Below, piece by piece: positions 485 through 61,351 of a DNA stretch of 64,000 bases. A model generated the notes under the pieces. That model ran no database searches. It saw only the letters and a list, made by a program, of their open reading frames with translations, and was not told the origin of the DNA. This stretch comes from a virus (lineage: Duplodnaviria; Caudoviricetes), in IMG/VR virus record IMGVR_UViG_3300047561_001367, positions 61,471-125,470 of that record. One strand, written 5' to 3'. Position 1 is the stretch's first letter. Every line of letters starts with the position of its first letter. A program made the position numbers and the translations under genes.

Positions 485-3412
485 ATGAGAACTATTGATG
501 TTAATAAAATACAGGGCGGTAATTTTTATGGAGGATTTCCATATAAAGTAAGCTGGCAGTTTGGAGGTTTAAAAGAACCGTCTCGATTAATTATAGAGGT
601 AGTAAATAAAGATGGAAATTATGGTACTCCAATTTTAAGTTTTACGGATGAAGTATCTATGACTATAGGAAGTTTTAAGTTTCAAGGGTACTTAATTAGT
701 TACGAATTAGATTCCACAGTACAGGAGAAAATTTTAAGATTAGAATATGTTGATAAAAGTGTTATTATGGATAGATGGTGGGTTGGATTGAATGGAATCC
801 ATGGTGATAAAAAAAATAATAAAACTTTTCAAAATATGATTATTGTAGGTAAGCAATATCATCCATGTGATGAAAATATGGATTCTTCAATCGAATATAC
901 AGAAGTACAACCAAAGATTGATGCGTGTGATCCATGTCCATATCTTCCACCAAATAAATATGATAACGCATGTAAGCCGGAACTAAAAGACATGGAAAAT
1001 TTTGCTACATATTATACTTTTAGTGATTTAATAAATCAGGTAAAAACTAAGGTTCCAGATTTAAATATTAAATATGATGCAACTAAAATATATATGTATA
1101 AAGCTCAGCATATTGGACCATTAAGGAGTGTGTTAGACTCTTGGGCTCAAGATTTGGGACTTTTGTATTTTTGGGATCCTTTTACAAAGGAGTTAAGTTT
1201 TAAAAATAGATCTATATTAGTTCCGCATGGTTTAACTTACGAAGATTTAAAATCAAATAAACAAGACGTTGTAGATGTTAAGTTTAAAAAAACATTAGAG
1301 GGTACATACTCTCGTGGTTTTATTGGATCATTAAGAATGCCAGGTGAAGAAAAGCAATATAGATGTGAAAATGAAACTGCGGAAGTACTAAAACCATTAA
1401 CTATTAATGATTTATATAATTTGCAAGATAATACTACCCCAACTAATGCTAGTGATATTACTGATATGGAGGCTATAGAAATTTCTACTGCTTTATCCTA
1501 TTATTCACAAGATTTACGAGATAGTTTTTTATGGTTTAAATACTATAATATAAAAAACCATACGGATTGCGAAAAATATATTGTAGATACCGGCTCTTCA
1601 TCTTCGTCTTCATCTTCTAGCGGTTCATCATCGTCTTCATCAAAATCGTCTTCCTCTTCATCTAAACAACAATCAAGTAGTAAATCTTCTCTGAAGAGAT
1701 CACCTTCAAATAATCAGTCTAAAGGTGGGGCAAAAGGTAATTCTTATGTTGGAAGTTCGCAACAATCAATAAATTCTCAAAATTTTCAAAAAAAACCTGG
1801 TTCATTATGGGGTTCGACTTCTGTTGGGCCTCAACCAAAATCTGATCCTTTAAATTTAGAATTATTTGGTTTTATGAAGATATTAGATGTCTACCATCCA
1901 AAAGGTACGCGTGATAAATCAAAATCAAATTTTTATAAGTGTCGTCGTTACATGAGTAAAGATCAAAAGAAAGCTGCAATGGGAAAAAATGGGACTCCAG
2001 ATGATCCAAAATATTATTTTTTTGTAGCCGAAAGTGATGAGGCGTCTTACCAGATGCTAACACAAATTGAACAAAAACGTGCTTCCGAATTTTTAGGTAT
2101 TTATTATTGGCGTTATTTTAACACAAGAGTTCCAGGAGCAAGTAATGCAAGTACTGAAGTTAAGGTAACTGGACCGCCAGATGATGGTGGGGGGCAATGG
2201 TTTAGGGCAAATGAAGCTTCTAATAATTTAGCACTATTTAAATTTGACCATACTAAAGATTCTTTAATTGGCGGCTTTTTAAAAGACTCCCTATCATCTG
2301 GAGCGCAGGAAAATGATGATAAAATGGCTACTCGTGAAGCTACTACATATACAGCAAATAATAGAACCCCAGACGATTTATTAACAAAGAGTATAATGAT
2401 TTGGAATAGAACCCCGAAATGGGTGCCAGAAAAAGATTTTGCAGATAAATGGTACCAAACATTATATGCATGGCATAAAGATCAAATACCAGCAAAATTT
2501 TCAAACAGTGACGGTCGCCCCGAGTTTTTAAAAAAAATTTATGCTGATGCAAGATGGAATCCAAATATTAGATTATATATAGTTAAAGAATTAGATGATT
2601 ATAAATTTAGCACTAAACAGGTTAAACATCCCAAAGAGCAAAAACATGGAAATTATTTAAAAAATCATGAGAATGGAGATGGTAGCTCTTTTAAAGAAAA
2701 TCGTGGTACTTGGGGGTTACAAAATACTACTACTGTAGAAATAACTATTCCAGGTATGGTAATCTCACCACCAGTGCAATCCTTTAGCAAAATAACTGAT
2801 GATATAGCACAAGCTTATACTGTAGATGGGCCTAATCAAAGTTATACGAAAGGCTATAGAGTTTGGCCCGAATGTTCATCAAATTTTAAAAAATTATTAC
2901 CAAAATTTGAATACACTAAAGGATATGATGCTGAAAATGCTGATAAGGTTCAATTTGTTCAATATAATGCCGTTGAAATTGCCGAGTCGAATTTGTCTCT
3001 ATTTAGTGACAAATGTGTTCCATCTGCGGATGATATAGACGAATACGTACAAGATGTTGGCTTATTAAGTAAATATAGCGTTACAGATGAAAAAGATATT
3101 ATTAATTTTAGAATGGCTGGCGTTTTTCCAGAGGAATATCATATTGAAAATGGATTATCTTCTGCATCAGTTGAAATTTCTGATAAAGGTTCTTACACAT
3201 CCTATGAATTTACAGATATGTATTTAGAACCGCCATCACAAACAGCTCTCGATCAAAGTTTTAGAAATAAACGTCTTGATATGCGTTTGAGCTATTTAAA
3301 TAACTTAATATCAGCTGGTGGCATAGCAGAGGGTAGTAATTATAAAAGTTTACAAAGAACGGATGAAAAGATAGGTAAAACTATGAGAAGCAATCTCTAC
3401 GGCAAATTTTAG
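485..3412 (+). CDS. Large putative tail/baseplate protein with a poly-Ser insert (975 aa)
   Basis: Long ORF in the structural operon; N-terminus resembles baseplate-hub-type beta modules; no specific family recognised. Confidence 0.55.
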   Translation: MRTIDVNKIQGGNFYGGFPYKVSWQFGGLKEPSRLIIEVVNKDGNYGTPILSFTDEVSMTIGSFKFQGYLISYELDSTVQEKILRLEYVDKSVIMDRWWVGLNGIHGDKKNNKTFQNMIIVGKQYHPCDENMDSSIEYTEVQPKIDACDPCPYLPPNKYDNACKPELKDMENFATYYTFSDLINQVKTKVPDLNIKYDATKIYMYKAQHIGPLRSVLDSWAQDLGLLYFWDPFTKELSFKNRSILVPHGLTYEDLKSNKQDVVDVKFKKTLEGTYSRGFIGSLRMPGEEKQYRCENETAEVLKPLTINDLYNLQDNTTPTNASDITDMEAIEISTALSYYSQDLRDSFLWFKYYNIKNHTDCEKYIVDTGSSSSSSSSSGSSSSSSKSSSSSSKQQSSSKSSLKRSPSNNQSKGGAKGNSYVGSSQQSINSQNFQKKPGSLWGSTSVGPQPKSDPLNLELFGFMKILDVYHPKGTRDKSKSNFYKCRRYMSKDQKKAAMGKNGTPDDPKYYFFVAESDEASYQMLTQIEQKRASEFLGIYYWRYFNTRVPGASNASTEVKVTGPPDDGGGQWFRANEASNNLALFKFDHTKDSLIGGFLKDSLSSGAQENDDKMATREATTYTANNRTPDDLLTKSIMIWNRTPKWVPEKDFADKWYQTLYAWHKDQIPAKFSNSDGRPEFLKKIYADARWNPNIRLYIVKELDDYKFSTKQVKHPKEQKHGNYLKNHENGDGSSFKENRGTWGLQNTTTVEITIPGMVISPPVQSFSKITDDIAQAYTVDGPNQSYTKGYRVWPECSSNFKKLLPKFEYTKGYDAENADKVQFVQYNAVEIAESNLSLFSDKCVPSADDIDEYVQDVGLLSKYSVTDEKDIINFRMAGVFPEEYHIENGLSSASVEISDKGSYTSYEFTDMYLEPPSQTALDQSFRNKRLDMRLSYLNNLISAGGIAEGSNYKSLQRTDEKIGKTMRSNLYGKF

Positions 3413-22985: not shown

Positions 22986-24175
22986 GAATTATTTGAGTAT
23001 AATAAAATATGACTCAACTCTTCTTTAAGAGCTATCAATTCTTCGTGTGTAATTGAAACTTGGGTTTGGATATTCAAATTTTCTATATGAATTTTTTTCT
23101 TATAAGCATGGTGGCTAGGATATAAAAATCCATCAGCATATAGTAATTTTCGTGTTTTGTAAAATAATTGTGTATTTTCTACTGGATGATATTTTAAAGT
23201 TGAGATTTCTTGAATAACAATTAATGTATCAATTAAGAGTTCTTTTCTGGAATTTAACTCTTCGATTGAATTTAAAGAGGTATCGTAAATACAAATAAAA
23301 TCAATATTAAACAATGTTAAGTCATTAATAAACTCTAAATTAATAGAATTTGTAATATTATATATTACTTTTGTAAGATTTTTTTTAAAATTTAAAATAC
23401 CTTTAATGTCGAAAGGCTTATCAGTTATAATCGCAGTGGGCCTTATATTTAAATTATTTAATAAAGCTTGGTAATGGATATTCTCAATATTATCTGTATA
23501 GTCTAATCTATAATTTACCATTTGCCCTTCAAATAAATTAGGTGGGACAATTTGGTCTGGTAAACATTCAAATATGTCATTAGTATATGAATCGCCAATA
23601 AATTCTGTTTTAAGATTAAAAGAACTTTCTTTAAAAAGTATTTGATCTATAGCATTCGCAACGGTTTCAATTTTAATAGTATTAATTAATTTTGGATTTT
23701 CGTTCGGATTAAAACTAGGTTTCCAATTTCCTGGTGGTCTTAAACAAATCGCATTGTCTTTATTCCAAAATGGACCTGCAATTTCCGGCGAACTAACGCT
23801 ATATAAAGCAACAATAGGTATATTAAAAGAACTTGCCATATGTACAGCAAAACTATCATTTCCAATATGCATTTTAGAATTATCTATAATAAATGCTGTT
23901 TGATTAATATCAGTTTGACCCTGTAATTGTATAACCCCTGTTAATGGTCGGTCATCCTTTGAACCAATTTGAATGATTTCATACCCATATTTTTCCAATT
24001 TTGGTTTTAAAAAATTAATAACTTCTTGAAAATATGCGTAACATTTCGCAGGCATACCGCTGCTATTTTGTATTGTTATATATTTACTACATGGTAACGG
24101 AAAATATTTTTTTATAATAAATGGTTTATTTATTTTACTACCCGTAGACAAAGCGTATTTTTCTAATAAGTGCAT
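22982..24175 (-). CDS. Glycosyltransferase family 9-like protein (C-terminal lobe plus extension)
   Basis: IIQIG...GQTDINQTAFII...HIGNDSFAVHMASSFNIPIVALY matches the GT9 nucleotide-sugar-binding lobe. Confidence 0.7.
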   Translation of the reverse strand: MHLLEKYALSTGSKINKPFIIKKYFPLPCSKYITIQNSSGMPAKCYAYFQEVINFLKPKLEKYGYEIIQIGSKDDRPLTGVIQLQGQTDINQTAFIIDNSKMHIGNDSFAVHMASSFNIPIVALYSVSSPEIAGPFWNKDNAICLRPPGNWKPSFNPNENPKLINTIKIETVANAIDQILFKESSFNLKTEFIGDSYTNDIFECLPDQIVPPNLFEGQMVNYRLDYTDNIENIHYQALLNNLNIRPTAIITDKPFDIKGILNFKKNLTKVIYNITNSINLEFINDLTLFNIDFICIYDTSLNSIEELNSRKELLIDTLIVIQEISTLKYHPVENTQLFYKTRKLLYADGFLYPSHHAYKKKIHIENLNIQTQVSITHEELIALKEELSHILLYSNNS

Positions 24176-24176
24176 A

Positions 24177-26096
24177 TTAATGTAAATCTAAATCAATTTT
24201 GTCTTCCCCATTATGCATATAGCTGAGAAGTCTTTGTGTTGAAAAATATGGATGATAAACAATATCGCATATTTTTTCTTGACCCATACCACCTTCAAGA
24301 AATATTGCTGAGTCCATTGCTTGATGATACGGAATCCATTTATCAATATAAGGGTTGCCTTCTATTAAATCTCTATATTGTGGATTTGTAGCGATGTATA
24401 TAGTATACTCTCCTTTTGGATACCTATTGCGTAAAGATTCAAAAAGTGAAGTGACTAAATAAACATCCCCAATACTTTCGGGTTGAATGAGTAGAACTCT
24501 TTTTTTGTCATTCGGCTGAAACAATTCGGAGATATTAATTTTTTTATTTTTATTAATTTCTTCTTGAGCTACTTGTCTAAAATATTGTTCAATTTCAGTT
24601 TTTGGAGTTCTTTCTGATATTTTATGAAGCCAATGTCGAACACCTTCATCTTCATCAGTAACTTCACGACCCAATATATATTTATATAAAGATTTAATCC
24701 AAGATCTTTCATCGTCGTTATCTGGAACTACAGCGTTGGGATTTGCTTGATTTTTTAATTGAGTATCAAATTGAAAACTGTCTTCTGGTAGTACGTCTAA
24801 TGAGTCTATAAATTGTTCAATTTTACCCCCATTAACTTCAATCGCGTAATTTTCTAAAGCCCATTTCCTAGAATCCTGCTCCATTTTTTCTTTTAAAGCT
24901 GGTTTCATTTCATAAACTTTTTTAAAAATTTTAGAAATTTCATATACAGAAGGTTGTGATTTTAAAAATTGAGTTCCATGCTCGGTATAAAAATTAAATT
25001 TCATTGGAAGACATCCTTTATTGTACTCTACAATATCTTCCCCGAATGAATAGCCAGCTGTAGTTACTATTTTTTGAGTAAGAGCAGCTTCAACGCATGG
25101 TAATTCACATGCTCCAGAAGTTGCTGGATGTGAATATAATGAAAATATATTATATATTTCATTTAGTTGTTCATCCGTAACTCCTAAACTTACATTTGAA
25201 GTAATTAATGTTTTTTTCTTTGTGATGGGGTTTTCGATATCCTGCCCATGGAATGGCGCAATAAAATATTGACGCGTTTCTTTACAAATATATGTGCAAA
25301 GAACCTCTCTAGGGTCTACCCCGTATTGTTGACAAAGCCGACCAATATCCCACCCTTCACCATAATGAGTATGTGTATATAAAAATGTATTTTTAATTTC
25401 TGGATTAGCCTTTTTAAACATCGCGTAGGCTTCAATTTGAGTATTAATTAATTTACGTAATTGATTACGAAAAACGAATCCAATAATAAAAGCGTCTTGT
25501 GGTATTCCAAAACGAGCTTTAATTTCAGCAATTTTTTGTAAAGGTAGCTTATAAAAATTATTAGTATTTACTAATGGATATTGATTTTTAACATGGGTGT
25601 GACCAAGTTTATGAAACTCTTTTCTAGCAAAATCACTCCATGTCCAATAGTGTTTTAATTTTGGAGCTTTTTCAATAGTGTCTGGCAATAATGGTAATGA
25701 ATCAAAAGTATTCCAGCAAACAGTGGGTATTTTTTCAAAAAATGGGTGGTCAATTACAAACTGGGAACCCCAAGTATCATTAATAGAAAAAATTACATCT
25801 GGTTTAAAATCTTTAACAATATTATTAATTTCAAGACCTCCATATGCTGCCACTCTAGCTAAGTTAGGATCTTGATTTATTTGTTGAATTTTATTAGGAT
25901 CGGTTGGTAAGACACCTATAGTTTTCCAGGGATATTTTTTTGTATGAGGTCCATCGCTAGGAGTTCCTTGCGCTGCATTTAAAATTTCATATTTATTTGT
26001 TTTATAGAGGTAGGATAGAAGCAGTTTACACTGTTTACCAAAACCAGTAAATGCACCCGCATAATCGGTTAAAAACAAAACTCTTTTTTTACGCAT
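24177..26096 (-). CDS. GT-B (GT4-like) glycosyltransferase fused to a helical domain and a GT9 N-terminal lobe
   Basis: TGFG at N-terminus, GFVFRNQLRK, ELPCVEAA; C-terminal SIGDVYLVT..L...YP...NPYID. Confidence 0.7.
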   Translation of the reverse strand: MRKKRVLFLTDYAGAFTGFGKQCKLLLSYLYKTNKYEILNAAQGTPSDGPHTKKYPWKTIGVLPTDPNKIQQINQDPNLARVAAYGGLEINNIVKDFKPDVIFSINDTWGSQFVIDHPFFEKIPTVCWNTFDSLPLLPDTIEKAPKLKHYWTWSDFARKEFHKLGHTHVKNQYPLVNTNNFYKLPLQKIAEIKARFGIPQDAFIIGFVFRNQLRKLINTQIEAYAMFKKANPEIKNTFLYTHTHYGEGWDIGRLCQQYGVDPREVLCTYICKETRQYFIAPFHGQDIENPITKKKTLITSNVSLGVTDEQLNEIYNIFSLYSHPATSGACELPCVEAALTQKIVTTAGYSFGEDIVEYNKGCLPMKFNFYTEHGTQFLKSQPSVYEISKIFKKVYEMKPALKEKMEQDSRKWALENYAIEVNGGKIEQFIDSLDVLPEDSFQFDTQLKNQANPNAVVPDNDDERSWIKSLYKYILGREVTDEDEGVRHWLHKISERTPKTEIEQYFRQVAQEEINKNKKINISELFQPNDKKRVLLIQPESIGDVYLVTSLFESLRNRYPKGEYTIYIATNPQYRDLIEGNPYIDKWIPYHQAMDSAIFLEGGMGQEKICDIVYHPYFSTQRLLSYMHNGEDKIDLDLH

Positions 26097-51128: not shown

Positions 51129-51188
51129 TATCCTACTTTACACTTAAAATATAGGGCTGAATTTTATAATTAGTGTAAATAATATATT

Positions 51189-55871: not shown

Positions 55872-58800
55872 TTATTTGTTTTCTTGATTTAGGTTTTCTA
55901 AATGTTGTTCTAAATTCATAGAAGAACTTGTTGATGGATTCCAAGAATAAGGCCGAGGTGGTACATATTTATCGGCTGGTTTAAATGGAGTGTCTGGTTC
56001 TGGAGAAACGTTAAGGTCACTAAATTTATCTCCAGTATTGTTAATAAAATGCCAAGATCTTAATTGTGAATTAGATGGATTATAACTAGACCATTCAGTA
56101 TTCCATAAATATTCATTTCTTTTCCATTTTTGGAATTTAAGGGAATTTTCCCAACTAGCATTATATATAGACTCGTAAGAGAAGGAAGTAAAACCTTTTG
56201 ATTTAACACGATCTGCAGATTGCATTCTTAATGAAATATCTACTTCATCATTAATACCATATCCAGTATAGGTTATTAAAAATTCTGTATCGGTTCCAAC
56301 ATTACCACCATCAGTGCTAATGTACTCTATGTATAAATTAATCCCACTTGGTACAATACCATCCCAAGTTCCAGTGCTTAAGATTTTATGACCATTATCT
56401 TGAGAGTATAAGGTATTATATAAATCGTAAAAATGAGTGTTATATAATGGAGTTGTTTGTTGTAAATGATTTTTTACTTTATATTCCGTGTATGGAATCG
56501 CAGAAATTAAATCTATTTGATTATCAGGATTACCATTATATATACAAGATAAAGGATCTGATGTATTAAAATTAGTACAACCCGTATAATTTTGATAATA
56601 GTCTAAAAGTCCAGTAAAGAAAGATAGATCATCATTAGCACTTTCTGTAGATCCATAATAATCGTCTAATAATCCACTTCCACTTATTGTATAGTAATCA
56701 TTAATAATAGAATTAATTTGGCTAATACTAGAATTTATATTAATATTTATACCATTTGTCATTGTATCTTTTAGATACGCAATACCACTAACAATTTCAC
56801 CTAATAAATTTTGCTTTTCGTTATTAGAAAGTTTAACTAATCCGTTAGTAAATACTGGACTGCTAGAACCTAAATATACTCCACGGACTCTAAGCCCAGA
56901 CGCTATTTTAATATATTCATTTTTTAAGATTTCTAATTTTCTAACGTATCCATTTCCAATCATTATGTCGTTACTAATTCCAGATACTCCAGTGATTGAA
57001 AGTATATTATTCCAAGCTTTAGAATCTTGAGCGGTATGTAATAAGAAACCAGTCCAATTAGTACCATTGGCAGATTTTAGTCCACTCAATGAAGAAGAAC
57101 TAGTACTTGGAATAACTGTCCATTCTTTTCCATTATAACTTATACCGCCCCAATTAGCATTAAGTGGAACGTTTAAAGCAGACCAAGTATTTCCGTTACT
57201 TGAAGTGGCGAACCTTGATCCACTAGAAGGAACTGCGATAAATTTACCATTTCCGTATTCTAAATAGGAAATAGATCCGGTAGTAATTGTATTAAATGCG
57301 AATCCAGTCCAGTTAATTCCATTGGCTGAATGTGAACCGCTTGCGGTAGGATTTTGATTAGAAAATGTGACCCATTTTCCACCACCATAAGCAAGAGTTG
57401 TATTAAAATATGTTGTAGCTATATTATTAGTTCCATATGCAGGTAAAATAACACCGCTATTAAATGGAATAAAATTATTTCCACTCCAAGTCGTTCCGTC
57501 TGTAGAGGTTATAGTACGTGGAGCGTAACCCGTAACAGATCCAGTCGCTATATAGTACCCACCAGAACAACAGGCGGATTCAGACTTAATTCCATTTATT
57601 ATAGTACTATTTTTAGATAAATTTCCAGTAGCACGATATGGTAAACCTAAGTTACCACTTATATAAGAATTACTTCCAGATTTAAATATCCAAGTACTAC
57701 TATTATCAGATGTACCTAATCTTGCATTAATTGTTATATATGGATCATCGACACGATAAGCAAAACCACTATTATTAACTACTAATAAAAGATGATCTTT
57801 TGTTTTTGGCAAGTAGCCTTCAGCAAAAGAACCAAAAGTTCCATTTCCATAAGTTTGATTAGGATAATCATATCTAGTTTGAAATTTATAGACTAAACCA
57901 TTTGGGTTTACTAATGGAAATGACTCCCAAGGACCGTTAGGGCTATTAGAAGCAAACCACGCCACACCCCAACCGGCTGCCAGATCAGCACCATAATCTT
58001 CCAGTATATATATAGGACTTCCACTGCTTAATTTAAGGGCATGTTTATTTATGCCATTGAACCCTGTAAATACAGCCGGACGACCACCTAATCCACTAGG
58101 TATATTATTACCAAAATATGTTGCAAGATTAGGATCAGATTGTGTCCATCCGGTAGTACGCAAAGGTAATGATGAGGTAGAAGACACTGCTGGTTCATAG
58201 GGAAGTCTAACAAATCTTAAATGAATTGGATCACCAGTTGGTGTAAAATTATTTTTGTTTTCAATATATAACTTTGAATATTGCCCTGATCCTTGATATA
58301 GGTCGTCATTAACGTAATAAAATGGAACATCATTAAAATTACCTAATAACCCATATCTAGACAGATTAATAGTGTCTGAATTTAAAAATTCAACTGTTTG
58401 TGGCTGAAAATTACTAGTATATCTAGATGTATTGGAAATTCTTACTTCGTCAATGTAACCCTTAAAGTTTCTGTAAAAACCTGGAGAATCAGCCGCTGTT
58501 CCAATATAGCAAGGCCTACTACTTAATACATCTCCATTATTATAGTATGTATTTTTATTAGAAAGCGTTCCATTAATATAAATTTCCCAGTTAGAGGCGC
58601 GTCTTTGAACGGCTATATGAGTCCATTGGTTTAAAGGAATTGTTCGATTTGAATCAATAGCTCCATTTCTACTACCATCATAGAACAGAACTTCTGATGT
58701 GTTACTTGTAATAAATAGCCCAACACCATTACTACCCCCAGCATTTCTTAAATCAATGATTGCTGTCAAATCATTTTCATCAGCAAGTTGCGTTGGGTAC

Positions 58801-60317
58801 ACCCAACATTCTATTGTAAAATCTTCCCGACCAAAACCAAAAGCTTTATCATCTGAAATAGATAAATAATCTCCGTCTCCATCAAAATATGCAGAACTAG
58901 TTCCGAATTTCTTTTGACCAGACTTAATATTTACATTACCGTGAGGTGTAACTAAGAATTTATACGAAGAGTTGTCTATAAAAGTAGTTGAACCATTAGT
59001 TCCACTCATATGAAGCAATAGACTTAAATTATCTAAAGTTGCGCCATAATTCCATTTCGCCATAGTTGTTTTAGCCTTGCTTAAATCTCTAGCTAAACCA
59101 GTAGTTGTACCCGTAACACGACTAGCACCTACAGCTACCCAACGATTTGTTCCATTAAAAACAATTTTATTAAAATACTCCATTGGAGTATATGCCCCAT
59201 TATTAGTTCCGCTTAGATTTATTACTGACCATGTTACTCCAGTATTTGTTGAAGTGGCACCTTTAGATTCCCGATAATATGTTGGTACTGTTATCCAACG
59301 ACCAGTACCTTGGGCAATACTTGACCATAGCCCAGTAATAGGTAGTGCGTTTGTTACTGTTTGCCATGTTATGCCACTATTTGTTGAAATTGTGATATCT
59401 GCGGTTGGATTATTATAATTATTTTGACCTACTGCTATCCATTTCCCACTAGCATAATCAGCATCTAATAATTTTTGAGTTACTATGTTTTCAACATCTT
59501 TTTGTTGAACCGACTTAACAGTCTTAATATTTTCTACAACAGTATTAAAAGTTCTAGCGGAAGCTTTATGTGGACTGACGTATACAATATTTTGATTTGT
59601 ATTATTTCCAGTTGAAATAACTAATAATCCATCCATAGTTCCGGCGTCATTTGGAGTATATGGAACAATTTTTACTGGATAGTTAAATTTTGGATATTTG
59701 TATACAAAACAACTTTGCGGATATGGCGCGTAAGCATTTACGGGCATATATATACCTTTTTTAGAATCCCATCCGCCAGGTACATATTTAAAATTATTAT
59801 TTTGTTTTAATGAATTTGTAATCGAATTATTTGCTAAATTTACTGGGGATTGGTAAGTAGATAATATGTTAGTAGTATATACCCCCTTTAAACGCTTTGG
59901 AAATGCAAACCTATTATAAGAATACAAGGGGTTGGTATTTTTATTATCAAATTCATGTTTTAAAATTTTACTAAAGAACTTCGCGTCTAAAAAATCTCTA
60001 CGAATTTTACCAATATTAAAATTTTCTAATTCACCGCGGCGCGTAAGAAAAAATTTATCTATTGCTTTGTAATATTGAGTGGCTGCAATAGGTTTAGATG
60101 AGTAGGTAATATGTCCAATATAACCTTTTTTATAATTTGTTTCAGATAAAACAGGGCGTACAAAAGATAAGCATACATTGGGTTTTGTTAAAGTACCCAA
60201 ATTATCTTTAGTTAACACGTAAGAATCCACTTGGATATTTGAACTATCTAAATTAATATTACTAATTAATGATAAGTTACCACCAAGTCCTAATTTTACA
60301 GAATTGCTTTGAGTCAT
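55872..60317 (-). CDS. Tail fibre/receptor-binding protein: BNR-like propeller repeats with inserted LamG/concanavalin A-like domain (1481 aa)
   Basis: S.NG..W repeats, YGNGKFIAV; SAYFDGDGDYL..DFTIECWVYP..WTHIAV.R..GYIDEVRIS. Confidence 0.8.
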   Translation of the reverse strand: MTQSNSVKLGLGGNLSLISNINLDSSNIQVDSYVLTKDNLGTLTKPNVCLSFVRPVLSETNYKKGYIGHITYSSKPIAATQYYKAIDKFFLTRRGELENFNIGKIRRDFLDAKFFSKILKHEFDNKNTNPLYSYNRFAFPKRLKGVYTTNILSTYQSPVNLANNSITNSLKQNNNFKYVPGGWDSKKGIYMPVNAYAPYPQSCFVYKYPKFNYPVKIVPYTPNDAGTMDGLLVISTGNNTNQNIVYVSPHKASARTFNTVVENIKTVKSVQQKDVENIVTQKLLDADYASGKWIAVGQNNYNNPTADITISTNSGITWQTVTNALPITGLWSSIAQGTGRWITVPTYYRESKGATSTNTGVTWSVINLSGTNNGAYTPMEYFNKIVFNGTNRWVAVGASRVTGTTTGLARDLSKAKTTMAKWNYGATLDNLSLLLHMSGTNGSTTFIDNSSYKFLVTPHGNVNIKSGQKKFGTSSAYFDGDGDYLSISDDKAFGFGREDFTIECWVYPTQLADENDLTAIIDLRNAGGSNGVGLFITSNTSEVLFYDGSRNGAIDSNRTIPLNQWTHIAVQRRASNWEIYINGTLSNKNTYYNNGDVLSSRPCYIGTAADSPGFYRNFKGYIDEVRISNTSRYTSNFQPQTVEFLNSDTINLSRYGLLGNFNDVPFYYVNDDLYQGSGQYSKLYIENKNNFTPTGDPIHLRFVRLPYEPAVSSTSSLPLRTTGWTQSDPNLATYFGNNIPSGLGGRPAVFTGFNGINKHALKLSSGSPIYILEDYGADLAAGWGVAWFASNSPNGPWESFPLVNPNGLVYKFQTRYDYPNQTYGNGTFGSFAEGYLPKTKDHLLLVVNNSGFAYRVDDPYITINARLGTSDNSSTWIFKSGSNSYISGNLGLPYRATGNLSKNSTIINGIKSESACCSGGYYIATGSVTGYAPRTITSTDGTTWSGNNFIPFNSGVILPAYGTNNIATTYFNTTLAYGGGKWVTFSNQNPTASGSHSANGINWTGFAFNTITTGSISYLEYGNGKFIAVPSSGSRFATSSNGNTWSALNVPLNANWGGISYNGKEWTVIPSTSSSSLSGLKSANGTNWTGFLLHTAQDSKAWNNILSITGVSGISNDIMIGNGYVRKLEILKNEYIKIASGLRVRGVYLGSSSPVFTNGLVKLSNNEKQNLLGEIVSGIAYLKDTMTNGINININSSISQINSIINDYYTISGSGLLDDYYGSTESANDDLSFFTGLLDYYQNYTGCTNFNTSDPLSCIYNGNPDNQIDLISAIPYTEYKVKNHLQQTTPLYNTHFYDLYNTLYSQDNGHKILSTGTWDGIVPSGINLYIEYISTDGGNVGTDTEFLITYTGYGINDEVDISLRMQSADRVKSKGFTSFSYESIYNASWENSLKFQKWKRNEYLWNTEWSSYNPSNSQLRSWHFINNTGDKFSDLNVSPEPDTPFKPADKYVPPRPYSWNPSTSSSMNLEQHLENLNQENK

Positions 60318-60335
60318 TTAACCAACAATAGGTGT

Positions 60336-60637
60336 TTATTTATGCACCCCTATTACCAGGGCCATAAAATGCTTTCCTACCTCTTATCAAAGTTGTTATC
60401 GTTAGACATTTTATTTCTAACATCTCTACGTCACCGTAGAGTTCAGACTATATCTTGTTACTACTTTCGTAGTAATCGGGGCGCTCGTGTTTGGTTTATT
60501 GTTTGCGTTACTCACCAATTAGTCGTTGCACCTTCTACATACTTTTTGTACGCTTATGTAGCTTGGCTCAGGATTGTCTTATTGCTAAGGTTTCCCCTGA
60601 ATTCACCCCGAAAGGTCATTTTAAATTTTAAAGAACT
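60336..60637 (-). ncRNA. Group I ribozyme (catalytic core P3-P9, IA-like), intergenic, not interrupting a gene
   Basis: Minus strand: P AAUUCAGGGGAAA, Q AAUCCUGAGC, R GCAACGACUA, S AAGAUAUAGUC; P3 CGGGGUG/CGCCCCG; P5 GCAA, P8 GAAA and P9 GUGA tetraloops; candidate omega-G at 60388. Confidence 0.9.
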
Positions 60638-60644
60638 ATTCTAT

Positions 60645-60650
60645 TTACAC
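60645..60650 (-). promoter_or_regulatory. GTGTAA late-type promoter motif in front of the ribozyme
   Basis: Same hexamer found 8-10 nt before several structural-gene starts. Confidence 0.6.
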
Positions 60651-60676
60651 ACGTTATAAGAAATGCGCAATAATTT

Positions 60677-61351
60677 TTATATATTATTTAAAATATTTAG
60701 CATTAAAGACTCCATACTAGGAGTATCATAACACTCTTCAGAATCTTTATTTGGCGAATCTATGATTGCTTTTCTTAAACTTGCAACTTCATCTTTAGCC
60801 GTTTCAGAAGGTTGTGACTGATACCAGTTTATTAAAGCTCGTATTAATTCGTATATACTTATTACCGAAGCAATAATATTTGCACGGTATAAGAGTACTT
60901 TTAAATTTATAAATTTATAGGCATTGTACCATGCTAATTTTTTTGCGGCGCATTGTGCTGCATAAATTGTTCCTACTTTGATATTTACGCATTTTCTTTC
61001 TATCAAGCTTGCGTCTTCCAAAGACTTACTAACGATTGAATCAAGCGGAGCTTTTTGAGCTTTTAACTCGCCTAGTTTTGATAATTTACTTTGGCATTCA
61101 TCCGTTAGAGATTTCCCTTGCTTATATAAGCTCTCTATTTCTTCATCTAGTGCTTTAATTTCGTCCTCGAATTTATAGCATTTATCTTTTGTCAAATTTG
61201 CCAAATCTTTGCATGCGTCTCTTTCTCTTGTTAGTCTTTCAAGCTCCCTATTAGCTTCCGCTCTTGCATTTAATAATTGTGACGTAGCATCTATTATCAA
61301 AAAAGGGAGTGATAATAATATAGCTCTTAATAAAAATGCTAAAAATGGCAT
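60677..61351 (-). CDS. Coiled-coil protein with two hydrophobic segments
   Basis: ORF track; GTGTAA 9 nt upstream (61361-61366). Confidence 0.6.
   Translation of the reverse strand: MPFLAFLLRAILLSLPFLIIDATSQLLNARAEANRELERLTRERDACKDLANLTKDKCYKFEDEIKALDEEIESLYKQGKSLTDECQSKLSKLGELKAQKAPLDSIVSKSLEDASLIERKCVNIKVGTIYAAQCAAKKLAWYNAYKFINLKVLLYRANIIASVISIYELIRALINWYQSQPSETAKDEVASLRKAIIDSPNKDSEECYDTPSMESLMLNILNNI

Follow-up and report, generated by a model that had tools for sequence, protein, structure and literature searches.

A promoter-led family of group I ribozymes in the leaders of phage virion-protein genes, with a candidate cleavage site next to the start codon

Results

The analyzed DNA (64 kb, hereafter the window) comes from an IMG/VR virus record of 125 kb, and the whole record contained one ribozyme element and one gene of the protein family that follows such elements. 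On the minus strand, the element was located between two complete ORFs. The upstream one (60677-61351, 224 aa), which is separate from the ribozyme unit, ended with a TAA stop codon at 60679-60677 and carried a GTGTAA sequence of its own (61366-61361), 9 nt 5' of its ATG. The downstream gene (55872-60317) encodes a 1481-aa protein of virion type that contains a ConA-like lectin domain and belongs to the ribozyme-following paralogous family; matches to Pfam Laminin_G_3 and to PHROG baseplate/virion families were restricted to residues 428-651, and the ATG (60317) was directly preceded by an in-frame TAA. All three reading frames were closed in the region between both ORFs, including the part upstream of 60663, and no endonuclease ORF was detected there by inspection of the ORFs of the locus. 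This inspection bore out the preliminary description, which had placed the upstream stop codon at 60677 and the ATG at 60317 after an in-frame TAA, and had reported no homing endonuclease. No terminator was found between the upstream ORF and the ribozyme unit. The 224-aa ORF, characterized by a hydrophobic N-terminus, a long coiled-coil-like middle part and only weak PHROG matches, was situated between a divergent 344-aa gene and the ribozyme in the window phage and in a near-identical strain (L002), and was missing from the equivalent site in most relatives (L003-L006, L009, L121).

When the 64-kb window was searched with Rfam, the only match reaching a gathering threshold was to the group I intron family RF00028 (60672-60424, minus strand; 81.6 bits, E 3.5e-19, gathering cut-off of 50 bits), and it covered the full model. 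The catalytic core (60611-60401) was delimited from this match together with RNAalifold and pair counts on 11 copies, and comprised P3 (60611-04/60483-76), P4 (60600-595/60573-68), P5, P6/P6a and a P7.1-like helix, P7 (60526-20/60450-45), which forms a pseudoknot with P3, P8 (60475-69/60464-58), P9 (60441-35/60430-24) and P9.1 (60421-14/60408-01). In the alignment of the 11 homologous copies, extending from the GTGTAA hexamer to a conserved UUG and with P7 added by hand as a pseudoknot, 98.3% of the cells of 60 pairs were paired, and both sides had changed in a compensatory manner in 28 of these 60 pairs. None of 500 shuffled alignments reached any of the five measures evaluated, and pairing in slid controls was only 34-48%. 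P7 with its guanosine site, J8/7 (AAGAUAUAGUCU) and J7/9 were invariant in this alignment. The element is thus a group I ribozyme by fold, and its core is under selection. The complete minus-strand group I core proposed in the preliminary description was confirmed by the covariance-model match, its helices P3, P4, P5, P6a, P7, P8, P9 and P9.1 agreed within 1 nt with the RNAalifold consensus of the 11 copies, and its view that intact helices imply selection was substantiated by the covariation and the high pairing.

Seven further copies scored 66-86 bits against RF00028. The region from P4 to P7.1 (alignment columns 76-200) occurred in two versions that were swapped between copies: only those with the first version, plus L118, L119 and L123, exceeded the RF00028 threshold, and a second core type (L004, L005, L006, L010a/b, L084, L121) fell below it and was clearly homologous by nhmmer and alignment. 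Orthologous loci whose flanks were 88-93% identical (L003 vs. L004) had only 57% identity in this module, but two copies of a single genome, G001 (L010 8143-8408 vs. 2642-2909), had 100%, their downstream proteins sharing only about 30% identity. Such identities indicate that the module was probably exchanged by gene conversion among ribozyme copies.

Homologues of the N-terminus of the downstream protein (44-48% identity) were retrieved from six metagenomic clusters, each of which had a homologous ribozyme in a gap of roughly 390 nt 5' of the ATG. Further copies were recovered with the ribozyme sequence, including four in one 147-kb virus record (G001), and a protein profile search gave 53 family representatives at 50% identity. 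Five more contexts were added, four with ribozyme copies (L119, L121, L123 and L124) and one (P0035) known from its gap, which was of matching size. In total, about 20 ribozyme copies were collected, 16 of them at distinct loci with a visible downstream gene. At all 16 loci, 7 of which had been found through the ribozyme sequence alone, the ribozyme was non-coding, and the gene immediately 3' of it had the same direction and belonged to one and the same paralogous protein family. In G001, each of the four ribozymes preceded one of exactly four family genes. The statement that the ribozyme interrupts no gene therefore held at the locus and at 16 distinct homologous loci, the opposite of the earlier concern that homologues might always lie inside coding or tRNA genes.

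The upstream neighbour was divergent at most loci, with its start codon within about 20 nt of the conserved region, so that no upstream exon of any size is possible there; in the window, L010a, L010b and L003b it was co-directional and ended with its own stop codon. The downstream protein aligned with its family from residue 1, and the N-terminal region of the family shared the motifs LGLGG, NLGTL, YPQS and STG..IVYVSPH. No PHROG or PDB relative of the N-terminal domain was found, Pfam gave no match in related full-length proteins, and its AlphaFold model had a mean pLDDT of 35. A distant family member (L120 1434-3386; profile E 9e-22) was encoded in an operon, 4 nt after the preceding gene and with neither gap nor ribozyme, which makes the association lineage-specific rather than family-wide. 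Four clustered tRNA genes were observed on the strand opposite to one ribozyme copy, at a distance of a few hundred bases (L084 3480-3900; L118 2062-2479).

The GenBank phage collection contained no near-identical phage, and in a distant search of that collection similarity to classical introns was confined to the core. Searches for related loci with the 224-aa ORF, the downstream-protein N-terminus or the family alignment returned nothing, or G001 only. Scanning the genome collection with a 19-mer gave three chance matches in GC-rich MAGs and no host clue.

The 5' border of the ribozyme unit was marked by a GTGTAA hexamer (60650-60645), a promoter-like (-10-type) signal. The hexamer was invariant in 15 ribozyme copies, in 11 of which it was placed exactly 8 nt 5' of the invariant G of GUUCUUU; more distant copies had GTGTAT or ATGTAA instead. 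The raw count of GTGTAA in the window was at chance level (29 vs. 29.8 expected), so its enrichment is positional: of about 55 gene starts, 7 had the hexamer no more than 35 nt upstream (about 0.44 expected), all of them heads of transcription units. These figures identify GTGTAA as a gene-start motif by position, in line with the earlier proposal that the ribozyme has a promoter motif of its own. In 12 non-ribozyme genes from the window and its relatives, the ATG was 8-11 nt after GTGTAA. Together, these sites suggest the specificity of a phage-specific sigma factor or RNA polymerase. Sites of the form GTGTAA(T/A) at unit heads, which mark a second promoter class besides the sigma-70-like one described below, were observed in the window at 3412, 15039, 45596(-), 51143(-), 51173, 61366(-) and 62958, those at 51143 and 51173 facing each other, and likewise in L004, L006, L010, L095 and L121; their distance to the ATG was 8-11 nt, sometimes 15-30 nt. 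At most ribozyme promoters, a T6-8 A7-8 tract followed by CA(A/T)G was present 15-18 nt 5' of the hexamer (L003 370-400, L004 3625-3650, L009, L058, L095, L121). This tract was rare at other GTGTAA sites, and it may be an UP-element or a -35-type signal peculiar to the ribozyme units.

No Shine-Dalgarno sequence was detected before any gene in the window. Sigma-70-like promoters (TTGACA-N17-TATAAT) were noted before many first genes (22950, 24175-26096, 27111, 27710, 45648), and these genes look leaderless because the ATG is only about 8 nt after the -10 box. The phage and its host thus appear to rely on leaderless or near-leaderless mRNAs. The hexamer was followed by a conserved 5' tail (60636-60619) formed by GUUCUUU and an A/U-rich stretch, with the G and UCUUU invariant in the 11-copy alignment. 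G60636 thus occupies the position that the A of the ATG has in genes of the leaderless type, and it is the probable first transcribed base. No consistent cis partner was found for the invariant GUUCUUU as a guide, and no covarying hairpin that could represent P2 was detected between 60636 and 60619.

Between the upstream stop codon and the hexamer there was an A/T-rich stretch (60676-60651). Both Rfam and the minimum free energy fold drew there an 8-bp 'P1' (60670-60663 with 60652-60645), which in the Rfam alignment contained non-canonical pairs. The best U.G-closed pairing of the hexamer region with the 70 nt upstream was compared with shuffled sequences in 14 copies, and was at chance level in all of them (combined Fisher P=0.998). 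The 8-bp pairing of the window itself was not better than shuffles (P=0.25) and had no counterpart in the 13 other copies. The hexamer is therefore interpreted as part of a promoter, and the P1 drawn upstream as coincidental. The earlier contention that there is no room for P1 was thus corrected, since Rfam aligns one at 60670-60663/60652-45, but that pairing equals chance. Another P1-like hairpin, proposed earlier at 60387-60364, was discarded: it was lost in L010a and L009 and overlaps a covarying helix of the spacer.

In all copies, P9.1 was followed by GAUAACA and then by 0-4 nt, with UUG next in 13 of 15 copies (60400-60388 in the window). The UU before G60388 is complementary to the AA of J7/9 (GAAC), in the manner of P9.0, and in L123 the J7/9 sequence was GACC and the terminal G was preceded by GU, a single compensatory event. 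G60388, already named as candidate omega-G in the preliminary description, is thus conserved and preceded by UU. The idea of another terminal G immediately 5' of GGUUA (about 60326-60323) was rejected, as the base before that strand was U, C, A or G depending on the sequence class. For either candidate 3' site, P10 was represented only by U-run/purine-run pairings that were not conserved.

From the terminal G to the next paired element (Pz, see below), a structured spacer or 'X domain' (60387-60324) was recognized, whose length was 68-230 nt across copies. Its outer helix (60381-76/60332-27) covaried (GGUAGG/CCUAUU, GGUGAC/GUCACU, GGAAG/CUUCU, AUAGA/UCUAU), and it enclosed a GUAA-capped hairpin (60361-48); the hairpin loops were of the GNRA type, mostly GUAA. 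No Rfam family matched the spacer. In some copies the distance between UUG and start codon was 140-230 nt, with long perfect hairpins (L084 2675-2860, L119 1835-2000, L124 1354-1500, L118 1266-1490), and the long spacers of L119 and L124 shared the motif AGAAGUAAACU.AGCCUUGCCCA...GGUAACAGAU, also without Rfam match. The enlarged spacer may be a further functional RNA domain.

A short helix, here called Pz, joins the 5' flank of the core with the bases before the start codon. Its 5' strand, the guide-like UGACC (60618-60614), is 2 nt 5' of P3, and its 3' strand, GGUUA (60323-60319), is just 5' of the start codon and was followed across copies by an A-rich run, usually AAAC or AA-AUG; U60320 pairs with G60617 in a conserved wobble. 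The 5'/3' strands of the sequence classes were UGACC/GGUUA, AGGCC/GGCUU, AGGUC/GACUU, CGGCC/GGCUG, AGCGU/ACGUU and GUCCG/CGGAU, in addition to the register-shifted GCCAU/AUGGU and GCCUU/AAGGU. The 5' strand was taken at a fixed offset, its complement was sought in the 45 nt upstream of the ATG, and strands were swapped between 9 sequence classes. A perfect 5-bp complement was present in 6 of the 9 classes vs. 24% in swaps (derangement P=0.0006), and the inner 4 bp were complementary in all 9 vs. 49% in swaps (derangement P<0.0002). Per-copy shuffle tests of this short helix (4-5 bp) were not significant. Compensatory changes were observed at four of the five positions. The second position stayed G.U in 7 of the 9 classes while its neighbours changed by Watson-Crick compensation, being G-C in L095b and U-A in L118; the register was off by 1-2 nt in L010b and L121. 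The wobble is oriented as at a group I 5' splice site, with U in the substrate strand, G in the guide strand and the guide running 3' to P3. Pz was 1-13 nt from the ATG in most copies, and it looks like a P1 helix with its putative substrate strand 3' of the core. RNAalifold also paired UUGAU, around G60388, with GUUAA; this alternative would compete with Pz and showed no covariation. Because its covariation joins the ribozyme with the bases before the start codon, Pz supports action in cis on the downstream mRNA. The earlier suggestion of a domesticated ribozyme is consequently retained for cis action on the downstream message, while its extension to RNAs in trans was unsupported.

Discussion

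The ribozyme was probably recruited to process or control the messages of the downstream family, since related phages keep the layout of a ribozyme before a family gene. The reading that we favor, with a probability of roughly 0.55, is a promoter-led leader ribozyme that would cut itself off the mRNA at Pz by guanosine attack. Transcription would start at the unit's own GTGTAA promoter, probably at G60636, and such a start would leave no upstream exon. The RNA would fold into a normal group I core (P3-P9.1) followed by the structured spacer, and UGACC (60618-14) would serve as an internal guide pairing with GGUUA (60323-19) in a P1-like helix with the wobble U60320.G60617. Before the cut, Pz would hold the start region. 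The guanosine cofactor would then attack after U60320, cutting between 60320 and 60319, 2 nt 5' of the ATG, and would free an mRNA with an A-rich leader of 2 nt (AA) in the window and of 2-13 nt in most relatives (about 26-40 nt in L119 and L118). Such a short leader would match the leaderless-type starts of the other genes of this phage. Read-through from the upstream gene could, in the window, generate a transcript carrying the 8-bp P1-like hairpin. We infer where transcription begins, that the RNA is catalytic, where it is cut and how the phage benefits.

Cleavage limited to the first step does not explain the conserved UUG/P9.0 at 60388. The linear order of guide, core, terminal G, spacer and 5'-splice-site-like helix was kept in all complete copies, and it equals that of a permuted intron-exon (PIE) construct. 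A second reading, which we consider tentative and on balance unlikely, is accordingly that the element is a circularly permuted group I intron of natural origin, with its opening in the loop of P1 and with circularisation of its spacer. GTP attack after U60320 would yield an mRNA with a fresh 5'-triphosphate G and the 2-nt leader, and the new 3'-OH would attack after G60388, producing a 68-nt circle (60387-60320) in which U60320 is joined to A60387 and freeing the core. Among the readings considered, it is the only one that uses both the downstream U.G helix and the upstream UUG/P9.0. We know of no natural permuted (PIE-order) group I intron. PIE constructs are man-made, are used for circular RNA and are usually opened in peripheral loops (PMC11394858, PMC13580324); the element shares with them the succession of core and terminal G, spacer and U.G helix.

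It is rather improbable that the element is a conventional self-splicing intron in untranslated RNA, with transcription starting upstream, P1 formed by upstream sequence and the GUGUAA region, and removal of the intron from the leader by splicing, either at G60388 or near 60326. The alignment of the full Rfam model including P1, the pairing UUGCGCAU/GUGUGUAA of the minimum free energy fold with its terminal U.G at 60663, the conserved UUG with P9.0 and the lack of a terminator after the upstream ORF would all fit such an intron, and splicing by a group I ribozyme inside a 5' UTR has a precedent in C. difficile (PMC3984707, PMC9481103). Yet the P1-like pairing was no better than shuffles in 14 of 14 copies, and the divergent neighbour of most relatives has its start codon 5-15 nt from any candidate splice site. 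The supposed guide hexamer is moreover invariant despite wholly different upstream sequences, the same hexamer marks 12 other gene starts, no consistent P10 was found, and the covarying Pz would be left without a role.

Similarly doubtful is a structured leader without catalysis, in which a stable 5' domain would protect the long mRNA or Pz would gate translation, no cutting being involved. The closeness of Pz to the ATG in most copies is compatible with gating, as is the alternative UUGAU/GUUAA pairing that would compete with it (RNAalifold), and access to the 5' end matters in a phage without Shine-Dalgarno sequences. However, the parts needed only for chemistry (the P7 guanosine site, J8/7, J7/9 with UUG, and the G.U of Pz) were invariant across diverged paralogous copies, which counts against this explanation because a merely structural RNA would be expected to drift there.

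Two further explanations appear highly improbable. Exchange of the P4-P7.1 module between copies could reflect a selfish or decaying intron relic spread by recombination and without function for the phage, but none of the 20 copies was degraded, the helices are kept by compensatory changes, and the element keeps strictly to a single gene family and a single position and lacks a homing endonuclease. A released core cutting or joining other RNAs in trans, through its 5' end or another guide, could make use of the invariant 5' GUUCUUU that has no cis partner, but no candidate target was found, and action in cis is favored by the covariation of Pz and by the one-to-one linkage in cis of ribozyme and downstream gene.

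Classical phage group I introns include those of T4 td, nrdB and nrdD and of Twort orf142. The nearest one by sequence was that of Clostridium phage phiCP13O, which splits the tail gene gp23/gp24 (71% over 190 nt of core). The element resembles these introns in P3-P9, the P7.1-type insertion, P9.1, J8/7 and the guanosine site of P7, and in a score above the RF00028 threshold. In classical introns, which interrupt coding or tRNA genes, the guide pairs with the upstream exon, and a homing endonuclease is often encoded (PMC3984707); unlike them, this element interrupts nothing, has its own promoter motif and finds the partner of its guide-like strand downstream of the core. Thus, the features of the RF00028 family were present (threshold score, P3-P9 with the P3/P7 pseudoknot, P7 and J8/7, and omega-G with P9.0), whereas neither an upstream-exon P1 with U.G nor a gene restored by splicing was found. 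Having no upstream exon or P1 and interrupting no gene, the element falls outside the introns, and is best regarded as a leader ribozyme, domesticated and promoter-led, that occurs in multiple copies.

Reviews describe bacterial and phage group I ribozymes as introns of coding, tRNA and rRNA genes, with C. difficile as the sole domesticated exception (PMC3984707, PMC9481103). In that 5' UTR, a c-di-GMP-II riboswitch is combined with a group I ribozyme (Lee et al. 2010, as cited in PMC3984707 and PMC9481103); this system has an upstream aptamer and normal 5' and 3' splice sites, needs guanosine/GTP and is reported from a single species. Both systems have a group I ribozyme domesticated in an untranslated leader, and in C. 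difficile its processing decides the translation of the downstream ORF; the phage element differs in that no aptamer family was detected, there is no upstream exon and it is multi-copy in phages. No riboswitch family, including the c-di-GMP-II aptamer, was matched by Rfam in the window or in 12 related loci.

A closer parallel in position is GIR1, the lariat-capping ribozyme of the twin-ribozyme introns of Didymium, Naegleria and Allovahlkampfia (PMC3679873, PMC2219692), which is derived from group I introns, stands before an ORF without splice sites, needs pairing between the 5' and 3' flanks of its core and makes the 5' end of an mRNA by cutting itself off (PMC3679873). The phage element is likewise immediately 5' of an ORF, has no upstream 5' splice site and joins the two flanks of its core by pairing. 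A rearranged core, branching, a eukaryotic setting and nesting in another intron are found in GIR1 only; in contrast, the element has a canonical RF00028 core and a conserved U.G wobble typical of guanosine-initiated cleavage. Neither a GIR1-type core nor a match to an Rfam GIR1 model was detected in the window, and no Rfam family other than RF00028 reached its threshold there.

The finding concerns a whole family of about 20 copies, up to four per genome, each probably heading its own transcription unit. These ribozymes are tied one-to-one to large, fast-diverging virion proteins, and their guide-like strand pairs with the bases before the start codon. Our literature search turned up neither a phage leader ribozyme like this one nor any permuted group I intron of natural origin. 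If the RNA is cut at that site, the family would be a bacterial-virus counterpart of the eukaryotic lariat-capping ribozyme, making the 5' end of an mRNA, and with GTP as cofactor that end would be triphosphorylated; alternatively, it may be the first natural permuted group I intron. Either outcome would widen the known roles of group I ribozymes, and could also yield a compact self-processing leader for RNA engineering.
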